NCBI GenBank assembly: GCA_963762145.1
Contig: CAVXJS010000008.1
Span: forward strand, 1-64,000
DNA from: an uncultured Candidatus Rokubacteria bacterium
Lineage (GTDB): Bacteria > Methylomirabilota > Methylomirabilia > Rokubacteriales > CSP1-6
Direction of reading: 5' to 3'
DNA length: 64,000 bases
Of this stretch, positions 3,358 through 35,384 are shown piece by piece. A program made the position numbers and the translations under genes. Below the pieces are notes generated by a model. The model was not told the origin of the DNA. It did not search any database and saw only the letters and a program-made list of their open reading frames with translations. Each line of letters starts with the position of its first letter. The stretch's first letter is position 1.

Positions 3358-4969
3358 TTCGCCACCTCGACTGCGCGCGTCTCGCGGATCACCACGACCT
3401 TGATGTGGCCGGGGTACTGCATCTCGGCCTCGATGCGCTTGGTGATGTCCTTGGCGAGCTGGTGGGCGTCGAGGTCGGAGATCTGCTCGGCCTTGGTCAT
3501 GATCCGCAGCTCGCGACCGGCCTGGATCGCGTAGCACATCTCCACGCCCTTGTAGGACATGGCGATCTCTTCCAGCTTGGCCAGCCGCTTGATGTAGCTC
3601 TCGAGCACATCGCGCCGGGCGCCCGGGCGCGCCGCGGAGATGCCGTCGGCGGCCTCGGTCAGCACCGCCTCGATCGTCTCCGGCTCGACGTTCTCGTGCC
3701 CGCAGAGCGCGGCGTTGATCACCTGCGGCGACTCGTTGTACTTGGTCAGCACCTGCAGCGAGAGCTCGGGGTGGCTGCCCTCCTGCTCGTGGGTGAGCGC
3801 CTTGCCGATGTCGTGGAGCAGTCCCATCCGCTTGGCGAGCTTGACGTCGGCCTTGATCTCGGCCGCCATCATGCCGGCGAGCCAGGCGACCTCCTTGGAG
3901 TGCTGCAGGCAGTTCTGGCCGTAGGAGGTCCGGAACTTCATTCGGCCCACCAGCTTGACCAGCTCGGGGTGCAGCCCGTGGACCCCGACCTCGAAGCAGG
4001 CCTTCTCGCCCTCCTCCCTCAGGTGCTGCTCCATCTCCTTCTTGACCTTCTCGACGACTTCCTCGATGCGGGCCGGGTGGATGCGCCCGTCGGCGATCAG
4101 CTTCTGGAGCGCCAGGCGCGCGATCTCCCGGCGGTACGGGTCGTACGCCGAGATCAGCACGGCCTCCGGGCGTGTCGTCGACGATCAGGTCGACGCCGGT
4201 GTGCCGCTCGAGCGCGCGGATGTTGCGGCCCTCGCGACCGATGATCCGGCCCTTCATGTCGTCCGAGGGCAGGTCGACGATCGAGACCGCGGTCTCCACG
4301 GTGTAGTCCGGGGCCAGGCGCTGGATCGTGGTGGCCAGGACCTCCTTGGCCTTGACGTGCGCCGTCTCGCGGGCCTCCTCCTCCAGGCGCATGCCGAGGA
4401 GCTGGGCCTCGCGGCGGGCTTCGACCTCGATCTGCGCCATGAGCTGGCGCTTGGCCTCCTCGGCGGTGAGTCCGGCGATCGACTCGAGCTTGCGCCGATG
4501 CTCCTCGAGCGCGTGGCCAGGCGCCCTTCCTTCTCGGCCGATGTTGCGCTCGCGCTCGGAGAAGGTCCGCTCGCGCCGCTGGATCGTGATCGCGCCGGTC
4601 GAGCTGGTCGAGGCGGCGGCTGAGCTGCTCCTCGTGCTGGGAGACGCGGCGCTCGATCTCCTGGATCTCCTTCTGGCGGGACGGGACTCCTGCTCCAGCT
4701 CGGCCCGGGCCCGGAGCGAGATCTCCTTGGCCTCGAGGTCGGCGGCCCGGATCTTGGCCTCGGCCTCGCGGGCCCGGGCCTCGGCCTCGCGCATGTTGCC
4801 CTCGGCGTCGCCGCGCGCCTGCTCGGCCAGCCGCTTCGCGTCGTCCAGGATGCGGTTGGCGGCCTGCGCATCGGCGAGCGTGGTCCGGACGGTCGGGATC
4901 AAGTGTCCCCCGAGATACCCGACGGCGCGAGAAGGGCGACGAGCGGCAACACCAAATCGGCCAGATCAT
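3354..4969 (-). CDS. rny: Ribonuclease Y, frameshifted
   Basis: Coiled coil, KH motif [18 protein letters not shown] motif [36 protein letters not shown]. Confidence 0.96.
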
Positions 4970-5060
4970 GGCGTCATCGGTCACTCCATTCCGGGTCGTG
5001 ACCCGGTCCGGATCATGTGCACTTGGGTATCGGGCGGCAAATAGCCGCGAAATTTGCCGA

Positions 5061-5089
5061 ATTATAGGCCCGGGGAGGAGGAAAGTCAA
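5061..5089 (-). promoter_or_regulatory. Near-consensus sigma70 promoter for rny
   Basis: TTGACT (5089-5084), 17 bp spacer, TATAAT (5066-5061). Confidence 0.85.
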
Positions 5090-5117
5090 CGAACGCGGGA
5101 GAGAGCTACGGAGACGG

Positions 5118-5301
5118 AGAGCGCCCCACCTCTGCCGTGTGCCGACGGTGTTTCGAACCTGGTATTAACCAGGTGGGCGCCAAATGGAGGGCTTCAGGCT
5201 TCCCCTACTAGAGGGGCATGCGCACCACCCTCGTGCACGGCTCCCAATCTGTTAACGAGGTTGAAACTTCCCCCCGGCATCACGTACAGCGTAGGGCCTC
5301 T
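5118..5301 (-). ncRNA. ssrS: 6S RNA
   Basis: About 184 nt between zapA and rny; ends pair (AGAGGCCCUAC / GUGGGGCGCUCU); internal GGGAGCC and CCCACCUGG..CCAGGUUCGAA segments resemble 6S RNAs; classic zapA-ssrS synteny. Confidence 0.85.
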
Positions 5302-5303
5302 AC

Positions 5304-5333
5304 TGTGTACCCCCGGCCCCGCCGACGGGTCAA
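5304..5333 (-). promoter_or_regulatory. Putative sigma70 promoter for 6S RNA
   Basis: TTGACC, 18 bp spacer, TACACA immediately upstream of the predicted 5' end. Confidence 0.5.
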
Positions 5334-5334
5334 G

Positions 5335-5633
5335 CTACTTTTCCGGCGCGACCACGTCCAGGAGTTGCCGCGGCGCCGAGGCGGGCGGTGACGTCTTGTG
5401 GTCGGCGTCCTGATCCTTGCGCTCCTCGCGGAGGCGGAACAGCTCGTCGGCCACGTCCAGGGCGGTGAGGGCCAGGACCCGGGCGGGATCCCCTCCCGCG
5501 GCGTCCCCGCGGATCTCCCGGGCGCGGCCGTCCACGAAGGTCGCGAGCTTGCGGACGTACTCGGGTGTCGCCTCGCTGCGGATGGCGTACTCTGGCCCAG
5601 GATCTCGATGTCGACCCGCTGCTTCTCCGCCAT
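5335..5633 (-). CDS. zapA: Cell division protein ZapA, frameshifted
   Basis: MAEKQRVDIEILGQ / EYAIRSEATPEYVRKLATFVD...VLALTALDVADELF. Confidence 0.88.
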
Positions 5634-5678
5634 GTAAAACCCCTCTTTTCTGTTCGTACATCTCGCGGCGCCACTGCG

Positions 5679-5761
5679 CCCCCTCACCCTACCCTCTCCC
5701 CCTCCGGGGGCGAGGGCTTCAAAAACCCTCTCCCCTCGGGGGAGAGGGCAGGGTGAGAGGG
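5679..5761. repeat. Inverted doublet of the same REP-like palindrome
   Basis: ccctcaccctaccctctccccctccgggggcgaggg followed by ccctctcccctcgggggagagggcagggtgagagg. Confidence 0.85.
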
Positions 5762-5768
5762 CGACCCG

Positions 5769-6030
5769 CTACTGGATGTCGAGCCGGTCCAGCTCCTTGA
5801 TGATGCCGTCCACCTGGGCCAGCACTTCCTTGCGCTCCTGCCGCAGGCTCGTCGAGCTCGGCGCGCTCCCCTTCGGCGTGCTGCAGCTTGGCCTCGAGAC
5901 CGGCCACCTTGCCCTGCAGGTTGTCGCGCTCCTTGCGCAGGCGGGTGATCGTCTCCGCGGCGCGGCGCACCGACTTCTCGAGCTGCTCGAGCCGTTCCGT
6001 CAGCCCCTCGGCCATCCGGTCCTCCGTCAC
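5769..6030 (-). CDS. ZapB-like coiled-coil protein, frameshifted
   Basis: LEQLEKSVRRAAETITRLRKERDNLQ...ERKEVLAQVDGIIKELDRLDIQ; position between pheT and zapA. Confidence 0.65.
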
Positions 6031-8460
6031 GCGCCGCGAACTTCGGCGCGGAAGCGCTTGGCGATCTCCGCGACGACGCGCTCGTACAGCCGGTTCACCT
6101 CGGCGTCGGTGAGGGTGCGGTCGGGCGCCTGGAAGGTGAGGCTCCAGGCGAGACTGCGCCGGCCCGCGCCCACCTGGCCGCCAGTGTACACGTCGAACAG
6201 GGTGACGCGCGTGAGCAGGTCGATGGCCAGCGCGCGGATGGCCGCCTCCACCTCGCCCGCGGTCACCTCGCTGCCCACCACGATCGCCAGGTCGCGCTGG
6301 ACGGCGGGGAAGCGGGCAGCGGCTCGTACTTCGCGACCGGGATCGGCAGGCCGGCGAGCGCGGTCACCGAGAGCTCGGCCACGAAGACCGGTCCGGGCAG
6401 GTCGAACACCTCGCGGGCCGCCAACGCCACCTCGCCGAACCAGCCGAGCTCGAGCGAGCCGCGTACCAGGCGGGCCGCGCGCCCGGGCTCGAGGTACGCG
6501 GGGGCCTGCTCCGCGGGCCAGACGCTCGTCTCGGCGTCGGTCACGCCCGCGGCCTGGAGCGCCAGCTCGGCCAGTCCCTTGGCGTCGTAGACGTCGACGC
6601 GATCGCGGGCGCCGGTGAACCAGGCGCGGGGCGCGCGCAAACCGGTCAGCGCGATGCCGAGGCGGAGGTCCTCGTGCGCGGGCCGATCGCCGTCCTCGGG
6701 CCGATGCGGCGCGAAGACATTGCCCACCTCGAAGACCCGGGCGTCCGGCATCTGCCGGTTCGCGTTGATCGCGAGCACGTCCAGCAGCCCCGGGATCAGC
6801 GAGGGGCGCAGCACCGATCGCTCGATCGAGGAGGGGTTCTGCAGCGTGATCAGGCCGGCGGGATCGTCCCAGCCCATGCGCTTGAGCCGGTCCGGATCGA
6901 GGAAGCTCCAGCTCACGCACTCGAAGAGGCCGGCCGCGTTCGAGCCCGGCTCATCACGCGCGCCACCCGCAGGCCGGCCGGGCGCTTGACCGGCACGATC
7001 TCGCCGCCGCCCGCCCGCGTCAGCGGGATCTGGTCGTAGCCCCAGATGCGGACGACCTCCTCGACCAGGTCGTCCTCCTGGTACACGTCGCGCCGGAAGC
7101 TCGGCACCACCACCTGCAGGTCGTCGCTCGAGTCGTCCACCGCGAAGCCCAGCGTTTGTAAGATCCGGACGGCGTCCGCGCGCGGCGGGCACGCGCCCAC
7201 GACCCGCGTCACCCGGTCGAGACGGAGGGTGATACGCCGGTGCGGGCGCGGATCCGGGTAGACGTCGAGCACGCCGCGGGCCACCGTGCCGCCGCCCAGG
7301 TCGGCCATGAGCTGCGCGGCGCGGGCCAGCACGTCGGGCGGCGCCTCGATATCCCCGCCGCGCTCGAATCGGTAGGCCGCGTCGGTCGACAGCCCGAGCG
7401 CCCTTGATGTCCGCCGGATCGAGCCCGGATCCCAGTAGGCGGCCTCGAGCAGCACGCTGGTGGTGGACGCGGTCACCTCGCTGTCCGCGCCGCCCATGAC
7501 GCCGCCGATGCCGACCGCGTGCTCGGGATCGCAGACCAGCGCGGTGTCGGGGCCGATCGCGCGCTCCTGGCCGTCCAGCGTCTTCATGCGCTCACCGGGC
7601 CGGGCGCGCCGCACCACCACCGTGTGCTGGGCCAGCGTGTCCCGGTCGAAGGCGTGGAGCGGCTGGCCCATCTCCCACATGATGTAGTTCGTCACGTCCA
7701 CCAGGTTGTTGATGGGCCGCAGCCCTACCGCGCGCAGGCGCTGGGCCAGCCACGGCGGCGACGGCTTCACGGTCAGCCCGGTGATCACGCGCGCGCAGAA
7801 GCGCGGGCACAGGTCGGGCGCCTGGATGTCGAGCGCGGCGAGCGCGGAGGCCTCCGGCTCGCCCTCGGTGACCAGCACCTTGGGGAAGCGGAACGGGGCG
7901 CCGGTGAGCGCGGCGACCTCGCGGGCCACCCCGACCACCGAGAGCGCGTCGGGCCGGTTCGGGGTGATCTCGACGTCGAGGATCCAGTCGTCCAGCCCCA
8001 GGTAGCGCACGACATCGGCGCCGAGCGGCGCTTCCGCGGGCAGCAGCAGGAGACCACTGTGATCGTCGCTGATCCCCAGCTCCTTCTCCGAGCACAGGAT
8101 CCCTTCCGAGACGACTCCGCGGATCTTGGCCGCCTTCACCTCGCCGAGCCCGGGCAGCCGGGCGCCCGGCGGCGCGAAGGCCGCGCGCGCCCCCGCCGCC
8201 GCGTTGGGCGCGCCGCAGACCACCGAGTAGCGGCGGTCGGGCAGCGCCACGCGCACGAGCTGGTTGTGGTGGCCGGCCGCGCTCACGCCCAGATCCCGCT
8301 CGATCGCCTCGATCTCGCCCACCACCACGCCGGCGAGCCCTTCCACCACCGGGGCGATCTGCTCGACGCCGATCCCGGCATTGGTCAGGCGATCGGCGAC
8401 CTCGCGCGCGCCGAGCTCGGTCTCCACGAACTCCTTCAGCCACGAGAACGAGATCTTCAT
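6027..8460 (-). CDS. pheT: Phenylalanine-tRNA ligase beta subunit, frameshifted
   Basis: [65 protein letters not shown]. Confidence 0.97.
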
Positions 8461-27105: not shown

Positions 27106-28518
27106 TCAGTCGATGGGCGGCCGGCGATCCGCCCAGGGCTGCGCGGCCTCGAAGGCGGCGGACGCGGCCAGGACGGTGTGATCGGCGTGGCGGCGCCCGA
27201 CGATCTGCAGCCCCACCGGCAGCCCCGCGCTCGTGAAGCCGACCGGGACGGTGGCCGCGGGCTGGCCGGTGAGGTTGAACGGGAAGCAGAAGGGCGTCCA
27301 GCCGAGCGGCGAGGAGGGCTCGCCGTTGACCTCGTTGAGCCCGGGCTTGCCGACCTCGAAGGCGGGCACCGCAACGGTGGGCGTGATCAGGAGGTCGAAG
27401 CGCGCCAGGAACCGCTGCACCTCCGTCCAGAACTCCCCGCGGCGTCGCACCGCACGGAGATACTGCGCGGCGGTGACCTCGGAGCCGAAGCGCAGCAGGG
27501 CGCGGAGCGAGCGGTCCATCTGCGCGCCGTCGGCTTCGACCCGGTCGCCCCACGCGCTCCATATCTCGGCGCCGACCGTGGTGCGGAAGGTCTCCTCCGG
27601 ATCATCCCAGTAGGGCGACACCACTTCCACGTGCCCGCCGAAGCTCTCGAAGCGCTCGGCCGCCGCCGCGCACAGGTCGGCCACCTCCGGGTCCACGCGC
27701 GCGTAGCCCAGATCGGGCGACCAGGCGACGCTGAGTCCCGCGATGCCGCCCTCGCAGGCGGCCAGGAACGAGGGCGCGCCGCCGGGCAGCGAATGCCGAT
27801 CGCGGTCGTCCGGCCCCGCGATCGCATCCAGCATCAGGGCCGCATCGCGCACGGTCCGGGTCATCGGCCCGGTGTGCGAGAGCGTCTCCCAGCCCGGGAA
27901 CCCGGGATTCTGCGGCACGCGGCCGAAGGACGGCTTGAGCCCGTAGATCCCGCAGAACGACGCGGGAATCCGGATGGAGCCGCCGGCGTCGGTGCCGACC
28001 GCGAGGGGCCCGAGCCCGGCGGCCACCGCCGCGCCCGCGCCGCCGCTCGAGCCGCCCGGCGTGAGCGCCGGGTTCCAGGGATTGCGCGTGATCCCGAAGA
28101 GCGGGCTCTCGGTCACCGCCTTGTGGCCGAACTCCGGCGTCGTGGTCTTGCCGATGAGGATGGCGCCCACGCCCTTCAGGCGCTCCACGCTGACCGCGTC
28201 CTCCTCGGGCACGTGATCGGTGAACAGCCGCGAGCCCCCGGTGGTCGGCACTCGCCGCATGAAGAGCAGGTCCTTGATCGACACCGGCACGCCGTGCAGC
28301 GGGCCGAGCTCCTCGCCGGTCATCACCGCGACCTCGGCCGACAGCGCGGCGTCGCGCGCTTCCTCCGCGGTCACCGCCGCGAAGCAGTTGAGCGTCGGAT
28401 TGAGGCGCTCGACGCGGGCCAGCACCGCGTCCACCACCTCGACCGGCGAGACCTTCTTGGACCGGATCAGCGCGGCCAGCTCGGTGGCCGGGATCCAGAC
28501 GAGGTCGGGCGTGGCCAT
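27106..28518 (-). CDS. Amidase-signature family enzyme
   Basis: GVPVSIKD, GKTTTPEFG, PGGSSGG, GTDAGGSIRIPAS, GLPVGLQIVG. Confidence 0.93.
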   Translation of the reverse strand: MATPDLVWIPATELAALIRSKKVSPVEVVDAVLARVERLNPTLNCFAAVTAEEARDAALSAEVAVMTGEELGPLHGVPVSIKDLLFMRRVPTTGGSRLFTDHVPEEDAVSVERLKGVGAILIGKTTTPEFGHKAVTESPLFGITRNPWNPALTPGGSSGGAGAAVAAGLGPLAVGTDAGGSIRIPASFCGIYGLKPSFGRVPQNPGFPGWETLSHTGPMTRTVRDAALMLDAIAGPDDRDRHSLPGGAPSFLAACEGGIAGLSVAWSPDLGYARVDPEVADLCAAAAERFESFGGHVEVVSPYWDDPEETFRTTVGAEIWSAWGDRVEADGAQMDRSLRALLRFGSEVTAAQYLRAVRRRGEFWTEVQRFLARFDLLITPTVAVPAFEVGKPGLNEVNGEPSSPLGWTPFCFPFNLTGQPAATVPVGFTSAGLPVGLQIVGRRHADHTVLAASAAFEAAQPWADRRPPID

Positions 28519-28931
28519 CAGGAGCCCGGGTTCACGCGGGCGAGGGTGTAGTCCACGTGGGTCGCGCCCGTGCCCTCGATGACGGTCAGCCGGCAGAGAT
28601 CGTCCCCCTTGAAGAACTCGACCCAGACCCCGGGGAACTTCTCCGCGTTGACGAAGCGGTCGCTGCGCGCCTCCTGCCAGCCCGCGTTGGCGAGCAGGCG
28701 GCGCGCGGTGGCCAGCGTCGTCTCCACGCTGTTCGGCGTGAAGTAGATGAGGCGGGCCGCGGTGACCTTCTGGGTCCGGATGATCGCCCAGTCGTCGGAG
28801 TAGGGCGTCCACTCGGCGGGCACCGGCACGTCCGGAAACGGCTGGAGCTGGATGGGCACCGCGATCGGCGAGCACGCGCCGAGCGACAGCGCGAGCCCCA
28901 TCACCGTCGGCAAGAGCTTCACGCGCCGCAT
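28518..28931 (-). CDS. Hypothetical lipoprotein
   Basis: MRRVKLLPTVMGLALSLGA-C lipobox; stop overlaps the amidase start. Confidence 0.65.
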   Translation of the reverse strand: MRRVKLLPTVMGLALSLGACSPIAVPIQLQPFPDVPVPAEWTPYSDDWAIIRTQKVTAARLIYFTPNSVETTLATARRLLANAGWQEARSDRFVNAEKFPGVWVEFFKGDDLCRLTVIEGTGATHVDYTLARVNPGS

Positions 28932-28973
28932 TGTATCCGTCCGTCCGCGGTCCGGCAACCGCGGCCCGCGGCG

Positions 28974-30338
28974 GTGATAGAGTATCGAGCCATATTGGAC
29001 CGCGCCGTGCTGCCCCGCCTGCGCGCCTCGCTCGCGCGCCCCGACGTCGTCGCCCTCGACCCCGACGGCGTGGCGCAGCTCGCGGCCGCGCTCGACGACG
29101 CGGATCCGCCGGTAGCGGCGGGACGCGCGGGCTCGCTCGTCGCCTACGCGCCGGGTCGCGCGCGGCGCCGGCTGCTCCAGTTCGACCGCCGCGGGCATCT
29201 CGTCGCCGCGTGTCGCTGGCGCGAGGACGGCGGCCTCGCGTGGGCCAAGTGCCTGCTGCCCGACGGGCGCTGGCTCGGGATCGAGCCGCGCGCGGACACG
29301 CATCCCGCGTGGGGCGCCTCGGATCGCGTCTGGCTGATGGAGCCCGACGCGCCGTGGGCTCCCCGCGAGGCGCTGACCCTCTTCCAGTCGCTCGACTACG
29401 CGCGGCCCGACTTCATCCCTCCGCTCTTCGAGCCGCGACGGCTCCCGCCCGGCGGCGGCACCACCCTGCTCAACCTGATCGCGGGGCTCATGAAGGACCA
29501 CGGGGTCGCCACCGTGCGCTACCGCGGGCCCTACCCGACCGAGCAGCTCTTCACCGCCCTGCTCGAGTGCTTTCGCTACGCGGCGGGCGAGGGGCTGCCG
29601 CTCGAGCGCTTCCTCGCCGACGGGGCCCTCGACTGGCATCCCGCGCCGTTCGAGGCGCAGCACGTGCGGCCCGGCGTCGTCGTGCAGCTCCGCCACGAGA
29701 TCGAGAAGGTCACGCTCAACGGCGAAGCCTTCTACCGCAGAGACTGGCAGGACGTCCGGCGGCGCGAGCCGCGCGTGGTCCGGAGCGACGGCGACCGCGT
29801 GATCTGCTCGCTCTGGGCCCTGGGCGGACCGCTGGAGGACCGCCTGGTGCTGGACCGCACCGGCGAGATCCTCGAATCGCCCGCGCCGGCGCCGGACGCG
29901 TCGGCGCCCGCGCCGTTGCCCCCGATCTGGCGCGGCGCGCTCGCCGAGCTGATCTCGCGCGAGAGCGCGCCCGCGCTGGCCCCCGCCATCGCGGCGGTGA
30001 CGGACGATCTGGGGCTCGAGTGGGGCCCGGTGCCCGGCGACCTCCTCCACGTGCACGGCCAGCGCGTGCGTCTGAGCCGGCGGCTCCGCGAGGCCGGCGC
30101 GGCGGCGCGGGCCGGCGCCGCCTCCCCGCAGGAGCGCGCCGAGCAGGCGCTCCGCTTCGTGCTCGAGATCGCGCGCCTGCTCGGCCCCGAGGTGCGCCAG
30201 CGCGCCCAGGCGCGCCTCGAAGCGCTCAGCGAGGAGGAGCAGCGCCGGGTGCTCGAGGCGGCGCCCGACGAGCTGCCGGAGGCGCTCGGCGAGGCGGTGG
30301 GGCGGCTGATCGCGCTGGTGATTCGCGGCGGGGGCTAG
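28974..30338 (+). CDS. Hypothetical protein (about 454 aa) with a possible GNAT-like segment
   Basis: Long GC3-rich ORF; RRLPPGGGTTLLNLIAGLMKDHGVATVRY. Confidence 0.7.
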   Translation: MIEYRAILDRAVLPRLRASLARPDVVALDPDGVAQLAAALDDADPPVAAGRAGSLVAYAPGRARRRLLQFDRRGHLVAACRWREDGGLAWAKCLLPDGRWLGIEPRADTHPAWGASDRVWLMEPDAPWAPREALTLFQSLDYARPDFIPPLFEPRRLPPGGGTTLLNLIAGLMKDHGVATVRYRGPYPTEQLFTALLECFRYAAGEGLPLERFLADGALDWHPAPFEAQHVRPGVVVQLRHEIEKVTLNGEAFYRRDWQDVRRREPRVVRSDGDRVICSLWALGGPLEDRLVLDRTGEILESPAPAPDASAPAPLPPIWRGALAELISRESAPALAPAIAAVTDDLGLEWGPVPGDLLHVHGQRVRLSRRLREAGAAARAGAASPQERAEQALRFVLEIARLLGPEVRQRAQARLEALSEEEQRRVLEAAPDELPEALGEAVGRLIALVIRGGG

Positions 30339-30342
30339 CGCG

Positions 30343-31596
30343 CTACGATTTGCCCGCGCTCGAGAGCAGCCAGACGTTCAGGAACACGAACCCGGCGATC
30401 GACACCACCGACAGCACGAAATACGCGAGGCAGATCGTCTCCTGGCGGGTCAGGAGCGTCGCGGTGCGGATGCGGCGCCAGAGCGACTCGCGCACGAAGC
30501 GCACCGAGTCGTGGTTCAGGGTGGGCACCCCGACCATCTCGACCAGGATGTGGTAGCCGTCCATCTCCAGGAAGCAGAACGGGTAGAGGCTGATGAAGAA
30601 CGACTGGATCTGGAGGATGGCGGAGGCCGCGATGAAGCCCTGCATCAGGCCGGGCTCGAGCAGGGTGGCGATCCAGAAGCAGAAGCCGCCCAGGAAGAGA
30701 TGGAACAGCGGCCCCGCCACCGCGTTGACGACCCGGGCCCGGCGGCTCGCCATGAAGATGTCGGTGACGTCGGCGTAGAAGGTCGGAATGAAGCCGTGCA
30801 GGATCGTGAACCCGAACTCGCGCACCCGCCGCTTGTAGTGGATGCAGGCGAGCGCGTGGATGATCTGGTGGTTGATCACGGTGAGCCAGAACACGACCTT
30901 CACGAGCAGGATCGCGACGAGGGGGTGGCTGGCCAGCCCGTGCGTCACCTCGCTCAGGTTGTTCCAGATCTTGATCCCGCTGTGGATGCCCAGCCCCATC
31001 ATGAGCACGAGCGCGGCGATGGCCCACGGCGAGAAGAGCAGGAAGCCCCCGTAGCGGTACATGCGCTCGAAGAACTGGTGCGAGCGCCGGCTCGTCACGG
31101 TCAGGCGCTCGAGCGCGTGGAGCGTGCCCTCCATCGCCCGGGCCGCCGGGTTGCGCCGGTTGCGGGCGAGCACCGCGCGCAGGCGCGAGACCGGCCGCAT
31201 CGTCAGCAGGTCGGCCCGCAGCAGCTTGACGATCAGGGTCGGGATGATCTCGAAATCGAAGGAGCCGTAGCGGAGCAGGTACGAGGTCGCGATCTCCTGG
31301 AGCGAGGCCCGCCCGTCCATCTGCCCCCACAGGAACTTCTCGGCCTCGGTGATCTGGATGATCTGCTCGGTGCGGCGGTTCTTGAGCGCGTAGGTGACGA
31401 CGCCCTGGGGCGCGTAGGGCAGCCGCGCCATCTCCCAGTCCGCGTCGGGGATGCGCTGGGGGCGGCTGTGGAGATAGGCGACCGCGCTCGAGATCTCCTG
31501 CGTGGCGAAGCCGCCGCCGTCCTGGTCGCGGACCAGCAGCTCGATGCGCGTCCGCTTGGGCCTGCTCTCCGCGGTCTTGTCGCCGGCCTCACTCAC
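30343..31596 (-). CDS. PqqD/RRE-like domain fused to an M50 (YydH-like) membrane peptidase homologue with HQxxH
   Basis: YALKNRRTEQIIQITEAEKFLWGQMDGRASLQEI; HQIIHALAC, FYADVTD, AGPL, PFCFLEMDGYHIL. Confidence 0.8.
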   Translation of the reverse strand: MSEAGDKTAESRPKRTRIELLVRDQDGGGFATQEISSAVAYLHSRPQRIPDADWEMARLPYAPQGVVTYALKNRRTEQIIQITEAEKFLWGQMDGRASLQEIATSYLLRYGSFDFEIIPTLIVKLLRADLLTMRPVSRLRAVLARNRRNPAARAMEGTLHALERLTVTSRRSHQFFERMYRYGGFLLFSPWAIAALVLMMGLGIHSGIKIWNNLSEVTHGLASHPLVAILLVKVVFWLTVINHQIIHALACIHYKRRVREFGFTILHGFIPTFYADVTDIFMASRRARVVNAVAGPLFHLFLGGFCFWIATLLEPGLMQGFIAASAILQIQSFFISLYPFCFLEMDGYHILVEMVGVPTLNHDSVRFVRESLWRRIRTATLLTRQETICLAYFVLSVVSIAGFVFLNVWLLSSAGKS

Positions 31597-32096
31597 TACT
31601 TGTGCTCGATGTCGAGGCCCGTCGCCTCCAGCCCCCAGCGCGTGACCTCGGCGACCAGATCGGACGAGTCGCGCAACCGCTGGAAGGCGACCTGCGCCAT
31701 CTGCTGGAAGAACTTGGCCGCCGCGAGCGGGCTGCCCGTCACGAAGCGGTTGAGGCTGTCGCGGTCGAGGCTGTAGAGCATGGTGTCGAGCTCGGCCTGG
31801 CAGGTGGCGGAGCGGCGCCGCTCGTCGCCGAAGACGCTCATCTCGCCGAAGACCTCGCCGGAGGCGAGCCGCGAGAGCACCTGCTCCACCCGGCCGGTGA
31901 CCGGCTTGGAGACCACGATGCTGCCGTCCCGGATCAGGTAGAGCTCCTCGCCGGGATCGCCCGCGCGGAACAGGACGTCACCCTTCTTGAGGCGACGCTC
32001 GCGGAAGCTGGGCCAGAGCGCGAGGAGGACCGGCTCCTCGACGTCCTTGAAATACAGGACCCGGCGGAGGAAGCCGATCTCGGGAAGGCTGGCCAC
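31596..32096 (-). CDS. Stand-alone cyclic-nucleotide-binding domain protein (no HTH)
   Basis: KGDVLFRAGDPGEELYLIRDG, GEVFGEMS, RRSAT. Confidence 0.88.
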   Translation of the reverse strand: MASLPEIGFLRRVLYFKDVEEPVLLALWPSFRERRLKKGDVLFRAGDPGEELYLIRDGSIVVSKPVTGRVEQVLSRLASGEVFGEMSVFGDERRRSATCQAELDTMLYSLDRDSLNRFVTGSPLAAAKFFQQMAQVAFQRLRDSSDLVAEVTRWGLEATGLDIEHK

Positions 32097-32123
32097 TCAG
32101 ATCCGTCCGGCGGGCACCCGCAA

Positions 32124-32345
32124 TCAGGTCGCCCAGCGCTTGAGCATGACGTTCTGCAGCGCGCGCGCCCGATCCCGGTCCGAGACATTGCTGGTGCTGC
32201 CCAGGGCGTGCTCGATCGCGGCCCGCTCGTCCGGGGTGAGCTCGAAGCCGGCCAGCACCCGCGCGGGCTCCCGCACGAGCTCGGCGAGGAACTCCTTGTC
32301 GATCATCACCTGTCCGACCAGGTCCTGGATGCCCTTGCTCGCCAC
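32124..32345 (-). CDS. NHLP/Nif11-clan (Os1348/Franean1_4349-like) leader-type small protein
   Basis: IQDLVGQVMIDKEFLAELVREPARVLAGFELTPDERAAI fits the G+..D.eFr..l..dP...l..y.Lt.eE pattern. Confidence 0.7.
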   Translation of the reverse strand: MASKGIQDLVGQVMIDKEFLAELVREPARVLAGFELTPDERAAIEHALGSTSNVSDRDRARALQNVMLKRWAT

Positions 32346-32461
32346 GACCGACCTCGACTTTTCCAGCCCCTCAGAAGATGGCTAGAAGCCCAATTTAGCA
32401 TGCACGGCGCGGTTTTAATACCGCCGATCCTCCCTCGGCGCGGCGATCGACGCCCCGGCGG

Positions 32462-32489
32462 TGTCAACGCCTTGCCGATTTCGTTCGTC
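32462..32489 (+). promoter_or_regulatory. Putative ECF-type promoter upstream of the ECF sigma gene
   Basis: TGTCAAC, 17 bp spacer, CGTC. Confidence 0.4.
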
Positions 32490-32528
32490 AGGTCTGATGA
32501 GAGGGGACGGAACGCCCGTCAGAGGGAC

Positions 32529-33041
32529 GTGGAGCCCGCACCCCGGCCGGATCTGCTGGTCGCCGCCCACTACGGGCGGCTCCAACGCCTGTGTCGCCTG
32601 CTCCTGGGCGACGCGCAGGAGGCCGACGACGTGGTGCAGGAGGTGTTCCTGAAGGCGCACGAGGCCGAGCGGCTCGGCCAGGTCCCGGCGAGCTGGGGCG
32701 CCTGGCTCACCCGGGTCGCGGTCAACGCCTGCCGCGACCGCCGGCGGGCCGGCGGCTGGATGCGCTTCCACCTGCGCGGCGTCCGGCTCGACGAGGTCCC
32801 GCTGGTGGCGCTGACGCCCGCGCCCAGCGACGTCGCGATCGGCGAGGAGACCCGCCGACGGATCTGGTTGGCCTTCCGCGCGCTGCCGCGGCGTCAGCAG
32901 GAGGTGTTCGCGCTCCGCCACATCGACGAGCAGCCCACGGTGGCGGTCGCGGCGGCCCTCGGGCTGAGCCCCGGGAGCGTGAAGCGGCATCTGTTCCGCG
33001 CGGTGCGCGCGCTGCGCCGGAGCCTGGAGGACACGCGATGA
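32529..33041 (+). CDS. ECF RNA polymerase sigma factor
   Basis: EADDVVQEVFLKA, WLTRVAVNACRD, LPRRQQEVFAL, GSVKRHLFRA. Confidence 0.9.
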   Translation: MEPAPRPDLLVAAHYGRLQRLCRLLLGDAQEADDVVQEVFLKAHEAERLGQVPASWGAWLTRVAVNACRDRRRAGGWMRFHLRGVRLDEVPLVALTPAPSDVAIGEETRRRIWLAFRALPRRQQEVFALRHIDEQPTVAVAAALGLSPGSVKRHLFRAVRALRRSLEDTR

Positions 33042-33508
33042 GCCCGTGCCTGTCCGACGAGGCGCTCGAGCGCGTCGAAGCGGAGCTCGCCTCGGTGGCC
33101 GAGCGGGCCCATCTGGCCGGCTGTGCGGCGTGCGCGGCGCGCCACCGGCGCATCCGCGGCGAGCTGGCCCTGATCACCGGTGTCCTGCGCGACACGGCCG
33201 AGCCCCGGACGCGGCCGCTCGCCACCCGGCGACGGCGCTGGATGCCCGCCACCGCTGGGCTCGCCGCCGTCGCGGCCGCGCTGCTGATCTGGGTCGAGGT
33301 CGCGGTGTGGCGCGCGGTGACCCCGGTGCCGCCCACCATGCAGCCGCACGAGGTGGCCGCGATCCTGGCCGACGTCTCCGCCGCGCTGTTCTCGGTGAGC
33401 GGCGATCCCGCCACCGCGACGACGGGTGCGACGGCGGACGATCCGGCCGCGAGCCTGGAGCTGATGGCGCAGGAGCTCGACCATGCGCTCACCGGAGGAG
33501 AACCATGA
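33038..33508 (+). CDS. Zinc-binding (ZAS) membrane anti-sigma factor
   Basis: HLAGCAAC (HxxxCxxC) followed by one TM helix; start overlaps the sigma stop. Confidence 0.8.
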   Translation: MSPCLSDEALERVEAELASVAERAHLAGCAACAARHRRIRGELALITGVLRDTAEPRTRPLATRRRRWMPATAGLAAVAAALLIWVEVAVWRAVTPVPPTMQPHEVAAILADVSAALFSVSGDPATATTGATADDPAASLELMAQELDHALTGGEP

Positions 33509-34011
33509 CGAGCCCGTTGACGATCCGAACGATCCTGGCCGCCGCGCTCCTGATCGCCTGGCCCGCCACGGCGACCTTCGCCCAGGCGCCGCCGACCGAC
33601 CCCGGCGCTGCGCTCGGCGGCATGCACGGGTCCACGGGCCGGATGGACGGCGAGCTGTGGCTGATGATCCGCGGCGCGGCCCTGACGCCGGAGCAGCAGG
33701 CGAAGGTGCGCGGGATCCTGTCCACGCACCGCGCCACCACGCGGCCGCTCGTCGAGCAGCTCCGCCAGGCGCAGCAGGAGCTGGGCGCCAAGCTGCTCGC
33801 GCCCGGGCCGCTGCAGCCCGCCGACCTGCAGCCGCAGCTCGGGCGCATCGGCCAGCTCCGCGACCAGCTCGCGCAGGACGGCGCGCAGGCCGCGCTCGAG
33901 GTCCGCGCGGTCCTCACGCCCGAGCAGCTCGCGCGGGCCGCCCAGACCAAGGAGCGGCTGACCCAGCTCCGCGAGGAGATGCGCCAGCTCGTGCAGCCAC
34001 CGCGCCCCTAG
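33505..34011 (+). CDS. Spy/CpxP-family periplasmic protein
   Basis: Signal peptide; two LTPEQ motifs. Confidence 0.82.
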   Translation: MTSPLTIRTILAAALLIAWPATATFAQAPPTDPGAALGGMHGSTGRMDGELWLMIRGAALTPEQQAKVRGILSTHRATTRPLVEQLRQAQQELGAKLLAPGPLQPADLQPQLGRIGQLRDQLAQDGAQAALEVRAVLTPEQLARAAQTKERLTQLREEMRQLVQPPRP

Positions 34012-34012
34012 C

Positions 34013-34297
34013 ATGAAGCGCCTGCTCGTCATCCTGCTGCTGCTCGCCATCGCGCTGCCCGGGCTCGCCCACGCGAGCCCGCCGGATCCTGCCTGGATCC
34101 CGGGCATCTACGACGATGACGACGGCGACGCGATCGGCGCGCTGATCGGCTCCGGGGCCGGAGCCGCGCCGCCGGCCGCGCCCGGCGCCGGCCCGCTCTT
34201 CCTCCCGCTGATCGCCCGCCTGGCCCCGACCCGGGAGCGGCCACCGCTCCAGGTGTGGGCCTCCGCGGCCCCGTCCCGCGCTCCACCCGCTCGCTAA
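34013..34297 (+). CDS. Small secretory peptide with C-terminal RAPP motif (candidate arrest peptide)
   Basis: MKRLLVILLLLAIALPGLAHA-SPPDPAWIPGIYDDDDGD...SRAPPAR*. Confidence 0.65.
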   Translation: MKRLLVILLLLAIALPGLAHASPPDPAWIPGIYDDDDGDAIGALIGSGAGAAPPAAPGAGPLFLPLIARLAPTRERPPLQVWASAAPSRAPPAR

Positions 34298-34354
34298 CCC
34301 CGCCTCGATCCCGTCGTCTCCGATCACCTCACACCCAACGGAGGAGGACTGTTC

Positions 34355-34804
34355 ATGCTCAGGATCGTCAAGCTGCTCGTGGCGAGCTTTGCGGTGGCCG
34401 CGCTCGGCGTGGCCGGACTCGACGCGCACGTGGCGCGCGCCGACTGGCGCGCGATCGCGGTGGACTGGGACGAGTCGGCGCCCGTGGTCAAGACCCTCGA
34501 CCCGGACGACGAGGGCGCCCTCGCCGACCACTTCTTCCACGTCGAGTGGACGGCCGGGCCGGGCGCAACCGGCCGCACCCGGATCACCGGCTACGTCTAC
34601 AACGACTATGGCGATTCCGCGATCCACGTCGCGCTGCGCATCCACGAGATCGACGCGAGCGGCAACGACGTCGCCAGCGTGGTCGCGCCGATCGGCGAAG
34701 CCGTCCCGGGTCACGGTCGGACCTACTTCGACGTCGCGGTCCCAAGTAGCCGCTTCTACCGGGTGGACGTGGCGTCCTTCGACTTCGTCGAGCTCCCCGG
34801 CTAA
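34355..34804 (+). CDS. Secreted FxLYD-like protein, paralogue of 26024-26413
   Basis: GGAGGA RBS; ITGYVYN...VALRIHEID..G....VPGHGRTYFDV. Confidence 0.65.
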   Translation: MLRIVKLLVASFAVAALGVAGLDAHVARADWRAIAVDWDESAPVVKTLDPDDEGALADHFFHVEWTAGPGATGRTRITGYVYNDYGDSAIHVALRIHEIDASGNDVASVVAPIGEAVPGHGRTYFDVAVPSSRFYRVDVASFDFVELPG

Positions 34805-34817
34805 GGAGGCAGACACC

Positions 34818-35384
34818 ATGCTCGATCGGGAGCCCGGGGCCGTGGTCGCGGTGTTCCCCACCAACCACTTCATCATCGAGGAATCGCACTTCACGAGCCA
34901 CGTCGCCGAGGCCGCCGCCTACGTGCGGACGCATCCCGGGTGGCTGCTGCTGCTGGGCGTGCCCCCGACGGAGGCGGCGCCCGCGCACGGGTGGATCGAG
35001 CCCGGCGAGCCGGTGGGCTCGACGGGCCGCCGCGCGGTCCATCGCGTTCGTGCGTTCCACGACGAGCCGCCCGCGGGGCGTGCCCTGTGCAACACCCTCG
35101 TCTTCACCGCCACCGTCACCGCCCTCGTGGAGGCCGGCCGGGCATGCCTGCCCCTGCTCCACGACCGGCTCACCCGCTTCGATCTGTTCACCGGCACGCG
35201 CTACGAGGCCATCGCGCTCCAGCAGGCCTATCTCTTCGCGCCCACCGCGGATTTCTCCCGCGCGGTCCTCGCGTCGGCCGACGTCCCGCTGGCGGTCGTG
35301 GAGATCCCGGCGCTGACCTGGTGGGACCTGGGCACGCCGGAGCGCGTGTCCCGCAGCGTCGGGATGGGGAGTCCCCGCGAATGA
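34818..35384 (+). pseudogene. N-terminally truncated sugar-phosphate nucleotidyltransferase (mannose-1-P guanylyltransferase-like)
   Basis: [39 protein letters not shown]; lacks the N-terminal LAGGxGxRL motif. Confidence 0.6.

Follow-up and report, generated by a model that had tools for sequence, protein, structure and literature searches.

Uncultured Rokubacteria of soil and groundwater carry a conserved unit of three genes, which encode a small protein, a stand-alone cyclic nucleotide monophosphate (cNMP)-binding protein, and a membrane protein related to the M50 (site-2) proteases, and in the last of these the catalytic glutamate of the metalloprotease motif HExxH is replaced by glutamine. 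This unit, hereafter the trio, lies in a 64,000-nt stretch of DNA (the window) that corresponds to positions 1–64,000 of contig CAVXJS010000008.1 in the assembly GCA_963762145.1 of an uncultured Candidatus Rokubacteria bacterium. Because the zinc-binding residues are kept and the catalytic glutamate is lost, the M50-like protein probably binds its partner without cutting it. We favor, tentatively and at somewhat less than an even chance, the reading that the trio is a self-contained rokubacterial operon in which a cNMP-responsive pseudo-protease captures the small protein without cleaving it. The wider proposal is offered as a doubtful possibility, namely that a catalytically dead intramembrane protease captures or releases a small folded protein at the membrane by means of a detachable cyclic-nucleotide receptor, and that a far larger and as yet undescribed family of cNMP-gated M50 proteins bearing a recognition element (RRE) of peptides that ribosomes synthesize and that are modified after translation (RiPPs) links cyclic-nucleotide signaling to peptide processing in many bacteria. 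The trio may be filed with the RiPP-type RRE-M50 protease modules.

Conservation of the trio and of its HQxxH motif

The three genes are co-directional on the minus strand and lie head to tail, in the order small protein (73 aa), cNMP protein (166 aa), and M50-like protein (417 aa; Table 1). The first two are separated by 27 nt and the last two overlap by 1 nt, so that the tightly packed unit of the original prediction was confirmed. The GC content at third codon positions (GC3) is 0.95–0.98 in the trio genes, much as in the neighboring housekeeping genes, and such values are to be expected of genuine genes in a genome of 70–72% GC, which is also approximately the GC content of the window.

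A scan of one genome per species with the window M50-like protein recovered 50 loci (49–95% identity), nearly all of them titled Rokubacteria, Rokuibacteriota, or Methylomirabilota; the few with other names are probably mis-binned contigs, judging from their 86–95% identity. The order and orientation of the three genes are the same in all 50 loci, with gaps that are mostly shorter than 65 nt or replaced by short overlaps. HQxxH, with both histidines and the DG aspartate intact, was found in all 49 loci that cover the motif (L018 ends before it), as was [S/C/A]LYP....EMDG, and no orthologue with glutamate occurs among them. The two checks that had been proposed, conservation of HQxxH and of the gene order in other genomes, thus both came out in favor of the unit, and a pattern present in 50/50 and 49/49 loci is not due to chance. 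The motifs are invariant down to 48% identity. The ratio of nonsynonymous to synonymous substitution rates (dN/dS) between the window and the three closest relatives compared (L001, L005, and L007) was 0.04–0.22 for each of the three genes, and all three are under purifying selection in these close pairs; the ratio climbs to 0.5–0.9 in distant pairs, on which we do not rely because their synonymous sites are probably saturated and GC3-constrained. Apparent frameshifts were seen in five loci (L015, L024, L029, L038, and L046), in one gene each; all five are "uncultured Candidatus Rokubacteria" assemblies, and the frameshifts are presumably assembly errors. A tblastn search of plasmids with the window M50-like protein gave no match.

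On the minus strand, positions 30885–30850 read L-T-V-I-N-H-Q-I-I-H-A-L, with the codons AAC CAC CAG ATC ATC CAC across the motif. HExxH with its catalytic glutamate is therefore HQIIH in the window, with both histidines and the DG aspartate kept, exactly as the original prediction had read it, the CAG codon included. The second metalloprotease motif is SLYPFCFLEMDGYH, in which SLYP (residues 336–339) is followed by LEMDGYH. In an alignment of 42 sequences, the zinc ligands H243, H247, and D346 do not vary, nor do G347 and Pro339, and Glu344, two residues ahead of the zinc-ligand aspartate, is strictly kept in 49/49 loci. SLYP might be taken as a second sign of inactivation. This did not survive the comparison: the Asn position of NxxP is Ser, Cys, or Ala in the loci (43, 5, and 1, respectively), and of 29 short HExxH representatives no more than 10 have Asn there, the other 19 having another residue. 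Because Asn is absent from so many HExxH relatives too, SLYP is a trait of the subfamily and not additional evidence of inactivation.

Among curated families, the M50-like protein is closest to NF041824 (daptide M50 protease; 81.6 bits, cut-off 300, E 5.7e-23, residues 76–407) and NF058609 (YydH/LiaK; 33.6 bits against 225, E 3e-8), and Pfam M50 (PF02163) gave 12.8 bits, below its cut-off of 27.2. As the scores are far below the cut-offs, the protein is a relative of the NF041824 and NF058609 families, not a member of them. It consists of an RRE/PqqD-like cytoplasmic domain (about residues 45–135) and an M50/site-2-protease-like core (about residues 170–417). An AlphaFold2 model based on the 42-sequence alignment had a mean predicted local distance difference test score (pLDDT) of 80 and a predicted template modeling score (pTM) of 0.72. 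In Foldseek searches of the PDB, its core matched the Methanocaldococcus site-2 protease mjS2P (3b4r_A; E 7.9e-3, probability 1.0) and the SpoIVFB(E44Q):pro-sigmaK complex (8vjm_A; probability 0.99), and a profile of the alignment also found 3b4r_A among the PDB sequences (E 0.0059). The N-terminal domain was modeled with strands at residues 54–59, 68–73, and 79–83, followed by helices at 84–92, 99–110, and 117–127, which is the winged-helix fold of an RRE, and it matched the lasso-peptide RRE TbiB1 with its leader (5v1u_A and 5v1v_A; target-normalized template modeling score 0.64–0.65, probability 0.99). Since no Foldseek E-value reached 0.001, the fold evidence is supportive, not strong.

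A search of 1.84 billion representatives with the M50-like protein gave 4684 relatives at E ≤ 0.001. The motifs were counted in those 115 of the best 150 relatives whose alignment covers both of them: 100 have HE, 10 HQ, and 4 HV, and one lacks the His residues as well. A tree of 57 sequences (IQ-TREE quick search) comprised the window, 14 proteins of the loci, 34 mid-length representatives, and 8 long ones trimmed to their M50 region. In it, all 17 HQ sequences group in a single branch with a support of 99 in the SH-like approximate likelihood ratio test (SH-aLRT), and this branch lies within a supported group (97) that also holds the two HV sequences and a single HE protein. The clade with Gln is monophyletic, and its nearest relatives have HExxH or HVxxH. 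According to the tree and the motif states, at least two or three losses of the catalytic glutamate occurred within this subfamily of ~400-aa proteins, and the protein was retained each time. That the sister clade has Val, and that one representative is without His, suggests that catalysis is dispensable in the subfamily. The HVxxH representatives of the sister clade are P0130, P0168, P0196, and P0254, and the one without both His residues is P0155.

The cNMP-binding protein, its fused relatives, and the small protein

The 166-aa protein matched PF00027 with 74.3 bits (cut-off 27.5) over residues 34–119, no helix-turn-helix (HTH) model matched it at E ≤ 0.1, and CRP/FNR models matched over N-terminal parts only, far below the cut-off; the cNMP-binding domain without an HTH, as first described, is thereby confirmed. 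The phosphate-binding cassette of such domains has the consensus Gly-Glu ... Arg-Ser/Thr-Ala, and it is intact here: across 31 sequences G84, E85, R95, and A97 never vary, and S96 and T98 hardly do. The C-terminal segment ...EVTRWGLEATG... is likewise invariant in these sequences and is likely to be a contact surface. The best NCBIfam match was TIGR03896 (46 bits against a cut-off of 161, E 4.3e-12), a bacteriocin-type transport-associated family that is cNMP-binding like the sensor but differs from it in having two domains and in belonging to NHLP/Nif11 transport clusters, no C39-type ATP-binding cassette (ABC) exporter being found near the trio. The searched passages of the 2010 paper on NHLP (PMC2887384) mention neither cyclic nucleotides nor M50.

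Seventy-two of the representatives are at least 430 aa long, and 64 of these were scanned with Pfam; the eight others include P0262, P0264, and P0269, which match the window cNMP protein. cNMP_binding domains are fused to the M50 core in 34 of the 64 long HExxH relatives (e.g., P0157, P0171, P0173, P0200, and P0217, with 29 more), usually two per protein and ranging from one to three. P0171 has FHA domains besides the cNMP domains, P0218 and P0224 have FHA domains without them, and P0257 has an AhpC/TSA domain. The fused relatives are 590–1160 aa long with 27–32% identity, all keep HExxH, and have a PqqD-like domain ahead of the M50 core, a domain that passed the Pfam threshold in P0217 and in P0224. 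Because such fusions are present in 34/64 long relatives, the free cNMP sensor is best regarded as the split counterpart of a fused architecture that is widespread: in P0157, P0173, P0200, and P0217 one polypeptide carries HExxH and, mostly, two cNMP domains, while the trio has separate genes and HQxxH. The fusions back the functional tie between the cNMP domain and the M50 family that the original prediction had drawn. Its idea that the pairing of cNMP domain and RRE-M50 protein arose by repurposing has to be given up, since this pairing is widespread in HExxH relatives; judging from the architectures, what appears distinctive in the trio is only the loss of the glutamate and the split into separate genes.

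The fused cNMP-RRE-M50 architecture is apparently undescribed. No NCBIfam model names the fused relatives above its cut-off, and in the literature searched we found no paper linking site-2/M50 proteases with cNMP-binding domains or describing an HQxxH M50 protein, subscription journals and bioRxiv supplements being unsearchable and a prior description thus possible. A tblastn search of plasmids with the fused P0173 gave partial matches only, covering ≤29% of the query, to the daptide gene mpaP and to an HlyD-linked site-2 protease. Two plasmid regions were viewed, one of them (L052) without annotation. In the other, positions 4098–8112 of a Pseudosulfitobacter plasmid (L051), a 715-aa site-2 protease relative follows an HlyD adaptor beside a giant LEPR-XLL protein, a context suggesting that some M50 relatives work in secretion.

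The sole NCBIfam match of the small protein at E ≤ 0.1 was NF038399 (Os1348 family NHLP clan), with 39.7 bits where the cut-off is 40 (E 3.8e-10); the Pfam family Frankia_peptide matched weakly (24.7 bits against 48), and no classical NHLP or Nif11 leader model did. Two orthologues carry the NCBI name "Os1348 family NHLP clan protein," and a profile of 31 orthologues matched PDB entry 6lk7 at E 1e-3, residues 6–31 aligning with 10–35. In a set of 50 sequences (the window and 49 loci, the frameshifted L029 having been dropped), the length is 72–74 aa, with one truncated copy of 61 aa. GG occurs in 1 of the 50 and cysteine in 3, with one Cys each. The C-terminus is KRWAT in 43, KRWST in 4, KRLAT in 2, and RRVAT in 1; the N-terminal 47 residues and the last ~15 are conserved, and the linker between them (about residues 48–58) is variable. 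The traits of a classical NHLP/Nif11 precursor, i.e., a double-Gly site, a Cys/Ser/Thr-rich core, and a match to a leader model, were thus not found, and the term small folded protein suits it better than that of a leader without its core. It is helical and probably folded. Of the NHLP/Nif11-clan peptide that had been predicted, the absence of a double-Gly site and a Cys-rich core stands, and the clan assignment is borderline, just short of the NF038399 cut-off.

Two further observations concern this protein. In one database protein, P0407, the small protein continues into the cNMP protein via a 12-residue read-through at the expected stop codon; because it is a single member it may be a sequencing error, a natural fusion being the alternative. 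The KRWAT tail (32127–32141, minus strand) and the C-terminal ...TRWGLEATG... segment of the cNMP protein (31599–31670, minus strand) have a common R-W...A-T pattern, which could reflect competition for one site or chance.

Proposed capture without cleavage and its alternatives

According to the mechanism that we favor, the RRE/PqqD-like domain, the active-site cleft, or both would dock the small protein at the inner membrane, and the KRWAT tail would be the obvious candidate to enter the cleft. With Gln in place of the base and with the zinc ligands H243, H247, and D346 kept, the membrane protein would hold the small protein uncut, as a natural version of the E-to-Q substrate-trap mutants made in the laboratory. 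The cytoplasmic cNMP protein, as the counterpart of the fused domains, would gate capture or release on cAMP or cGMP, and the level of the free small protein or of the complex would report the second messenger. The order of the genes, the state of the motif, its conservation, the purifying selection, the fusions, the fold, and the intact cassette are observations, whereas we infer that hydrolysis is lost and that the three proteins bind one another, and likewise the ligand and a downstream output. What argues for a non-hydrolyzing binder is that the general base is gone clade-wide while the rest is kept, that the sister clade has Val, and that Gln for Glu is also the exchange of the laboratory SpoIVFB trap and of ACE3 and some ADAMs, which are regarded as inactive.

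Site-2 proteases have been studied as irreversible switches. If the above is true, the lineage-wide change from Glu to Gln with the zinc site kept would show that their fold can be put to new use for reversible binding. A site-2 protease that is by nature a substrate trap would then add a new kind of output to second-messenger signaling, and the trio would be a ready-made trapped complex for structural work. To our knowledge, bacterial stand-alone cNMP-binding proteins are mostly without known outputs, and the trio offers a testable one. The fusions in 34/64 long relatives point to a broad link between cyclic nucleotides and RiPP-type peptide processing, independent of whether the trio is a trap.

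Several known systems resemble the trio in part. The cytoplasmic CBS domain of the Bacillus subtilis site-2 protease SpoIVFB reportedly senses ATP. SpoIVFB thus shares with the trio the core fold and the idea of nucleotide-binding regulation, and its laboratory trap E44Q (8vjm) is the natural state of this clade; in the trio, however, the sensor is a separate cNMP protein, the docking domain is RRE-like, and a soluble protein of 73 aa takes the place of the membrane-associated pro-sigma factor. The best curated relatives, MpaP (NF041824) and YydH/EpeP/LiaK (NF058609), likewise have a membrane M50 core beside a small peptide gene, and the trio differs from them by Gln for Glu, by the lack of adjacent modifying enzymes, and by its cNMP receptor partner. 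Os1348 (PDB 6lk7), the prototype of NF038399 and, according to the accessible portions of its description, an 85-aa all-helical dimer (PMC7726476), is also a small helical protein whose gene lies ahead of a metallopeptidase-like gene. The same portions place it before genes for a GNAT protein, a soluble HEXXH peptidase, and a SagB-type dehydrogenase (PMC7726476), whereas the small protein of the trio is partnered by a cNMP receptor and an M50-like membrane protein. As for inactive homologs, the plant protein EGY3, which lacks the whole HExxH, is described in the available part of PMC10978774 as a site-2-protease pseudoprotease, and pseudoproteases of this fold thus exist. The zincins ACE3 and some ADAMs, which have HQxxH by the same change from Glu to Gln as the trio, are regarded as inactive in the available parts of PMC1925091 and PMC3650047, and iRhoms have also lost catalytic residues yet are functional. 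None of these proteins is bacterial, RRE-fused, or linked to cyclic nucleotides.

A number of observations weigh against capture without cleavage by a split cNMP-gated module. The tree places the fused relatives in its other main branch, and the sensor is no closer to fused cNMP domains (up to ~48 bits) than to generic CRP or TIGR03896 models (45–46 bits), so that the split-gene reading rests on architecture and not on a specific kinship in sequence. Pfam PqqD (PF05402) was non-significant for the window N-terminal domain (12.5 bits, E 0.2, cut-off 23.4); the PqqD/RRE assignment made at the outset is therefore upheld by the fold match to TbiB1 and not by this score, the L031 orthologue reaching 17.8 bits (E 0.0042) and some distant relatives exceeding the cut-off. 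The invariance of the zinc ligands and the surrounding motifs is equally expected of an enzyme that is still active, and Glu344 is kept in 12 of 14 Glu-less representatives and in 49/49 loci but in only 61 of 100 HExxH representatives, a stricter retention because of which it could act as a substitute base. These points lead to an explanation that we consider serious, if unlikely: the M50-like protein would still be a working protease in a minimal RiPP-like or small-protein processing unit under cNMP control, trimming the 73-aa protein, e.g., at its C-terminal tail, with Glu344, or Asp276 or Asp279 of the YADVTD loop, as the base. D276 and D279 are near-universal in the family, and the relatives are RiPP proteases. 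The M50 pearlin enzymes TglG and TmoG are said, in the accessible text of PMC10885120, to act on peptide C-termini, which the invariant C-terminus of the small protein fits; for the same reason the KRWAT tail is a plausible point of engagement whether the protein cuts or holds. The general base, however, is the HExxH glutamate in all characterized zincins, and E-to-Q is the standard way to an inactive trap, 8vjm being titled E44Q. Glu344, D276, and D279 are present in most HExxH relatives too and so are not new compensations, and the Val of the sister clade and the His-less representative suggest that catalysis is dispensable, all of which leads us to prefer a pseudo-protease that holds the small protein.

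The other alternatives are less probable. A MacB/FtsX-type permease gene directly upstream of the small-protein gene in 12 of the 50 loci (L001, L002, L003, L008–L013, L017, L018, and L020) also weighs against the favored reading and hints at export; it encodes ~410 aa, is co-directional, has no ATPase gene beside it, and lies between the extracytoplasmic function (ECF) sigma module and the small-protein gene (3912–5143 in L001). The M50-like protein would then be mainly a membrane passage or export adaptor that has lost cleavage, and the small protein would be extracellular, e.g., bacteriocin-like as Os1348. The site-2 protease relative beside an HlyD adaptor and a giant LEPR-XLL protein on the Pseudosulfitobacter plasmid fits such a role. 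As far as the available passages go, the M50 protein EpeP is thought to cleave and export its own peptide (PMC10885120), and loss of Os1348 reduced antibiotic activity in Pseudomonas sp. Os17 (PMC7726476). Still, the permease is missing from the window and 38/50 loci, the scanned flanks showed neither HlyD nor an ABC ATPase, and a cytoplasmic cNMP receptor suits regulation better than secretion. We also know of no precedent for the export of a 73-aa folded helical protein through a site-2 protease fold, and we regard export as improbable. The absence of adjacent RiPP enzymes and exporters, which had been pointed out in the original prediction, holds for the window, where a Pfam scan of 47 open reading frames (ORFs) found no radical SAM, YcaO, or lanthipeptide enzyme and no C39 exporter; these proteins, with HlyD, were also absent from 52 flanking proteins of 12 diverse loci, and the claim fails as to the exporter at the 12 loci with the MacB-type permease. 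A modifying enzyme encoded with the precursor, by which a RiPP cluster is recognized, was not found in the window or in the 12 diverse loci. Far less credible is a role in anti-phage defense, in which the trio would be an effector like those of Pycsar or CBASS, set off by a cyclic nucleotide, and the membrane protein would do the killing: the cNMP protein does match the cNMP part of PADLOC Pycsar effector and cyclase models (31–36 bits), but this is generic similarity between cNMP domains, and the small protein, the M50-like protein, and the neighboring 447-aa protein match nothing in PADLOC. The Pfam-scanned flanks of the window and of 12 of the 50 loci, the other 38 being unscanned, hold no cyclase save one about 2 kb upstream of the trio in L050, and the surroundings are housekeeping genes with conserved synteny and no defense island. 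The least tenable explanation, to which we give almost no weight, sees in the trio the now functionless remains of a RiPP cluster in decay, as might be thought from the lost glutamate and the lack of a maturase and a typical core peptide. It is already contradicted by the conservation data, as the three genes are intact in the window and most loci, with frameshifts in five only, dN/dS is low in close pairs, the motifs do not vary down to the most distant loci, and the trio has moved as a unit.

Genomic surroundings and promoter

The 47 ORFs of the window scanned with Pfam are translation, transport, and metabolic genes. When 12 window neighbors were used as queries against the 50 loci, the convergent 447-aa gene was found in 34, an amidase gene in 28, and an ECF sigma/anti-sigma pair in 14. 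Eight loci (L016, L021–L025, L049, and L050; 74–81% identity) have none of the 12, and six of them that were scanned with Pfam show unrelated metabolic genes; because these eight loci have other neighbors, the trio has moved between contexts as a unit.

Table 1. Positions of the trio genes, their key motifs, and associated elements in the window
Feature	Position	Strand	Basis
Small-protein gene, 73 aa, Os1348/NHLP clan	32124..32345	(-)	ORF and family models
Stand-alone cNMP-binding protein gene, 166 aa, without HTH	31596..32096	(-)	ORF and Pfam/NCBIfam
RRE/PqqD-like and M50 membrane protein gene, 417 aa	30343..31596	(-)	ORF, NCBIfam, alignment, model, and Foldseek
HQIIH codons (H243–H247); CAG of Q244 at 30865–30867 replaces the HExxH Glu	30856..30870	(-)	Minus-strand reading
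SLYPFCFLEMDGY codons, residues 336–348, counterpart of NxxPxxxxDG	30553..30591	(-)	Motif reading and alignment
TGCTAAATT, sigma-70-like extended -10 element	32392..32400	(-)	Upstream-region comparison
Convergent 447-aa conserved hypothetical gene	28995..30338	(+)	ORF; neighbor survey

The stop codon of the 447-aa gene is 4 nt from that of the M50-like gene, and its product has a strongly conserved motif at about residues 141–194. The protein was modeled with a pLDDT of 89.9 and a pTM of 0.85, and it had no match in Pfam, NCBIfam, PADLOC, the PDB sequences, or the Atlas and no significant fold match in the PDB. An identity as a GNAT protein was considered and rejected, the best Foldseek match being an acyltransferase domain with an E-value of 0.037 and a probability of only 0.35. 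Judging from the neighbor survey, the gene is a possible associate of the trio.

On the other side of the trio, positions 33038–34804 of the plus strand hold a divergent module of the envelope-stress type, consisting of genes for an ECF sigma factor, a putative anti-sigma factor, a Spy/LTXXQ-like periplasmic protein, a small secreted protein, and an FxLYD-like protein; the sigma factor gene starts 132 nt from the small-protein gene. A link of the trio to this module, which had been considered at first, is rejected, since the module adjoins the trio in 14/50 loci only and the small-protein gene has a sigma-70-like element of its own. This element, TGCTAAATT, lies 55 nt upstream of the small-protein start codon. 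The pattern TGnTAnnnT was found in 20 of 30 upstream regions, including those of lineages with other neighbors (in shuffled sequences 1.4 on average and at most 5), a count that is inflated by the relatedness of the sequences, and plain TATAAT in four further regions. The promoter of the small-protein gene therefore looks like a housekeeping-type rather than an ECF-type promoter. A generic promoter and terminator scan returned no promoter and two overlapping terminator-like sites within the M50-like gene, near chance level, and Rfam gave no match at E ≤ 0.1 over positions 28000–35000.

In L050, alone among the 12 loci whose flanks were scanned, a class III adenylate/guanylate cyclase-AAA-TPR protein is encoded at 43–2916. 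In three other loci, a tRNA-Glu(UUC) gene ends ~20–25 nt ahead of the small-protein gene (L027, 5161–5239; L035, 5127–5205; and L048, 5133–5211), and in L026 the same tRNA gene is located ~2 kb upstream of it.

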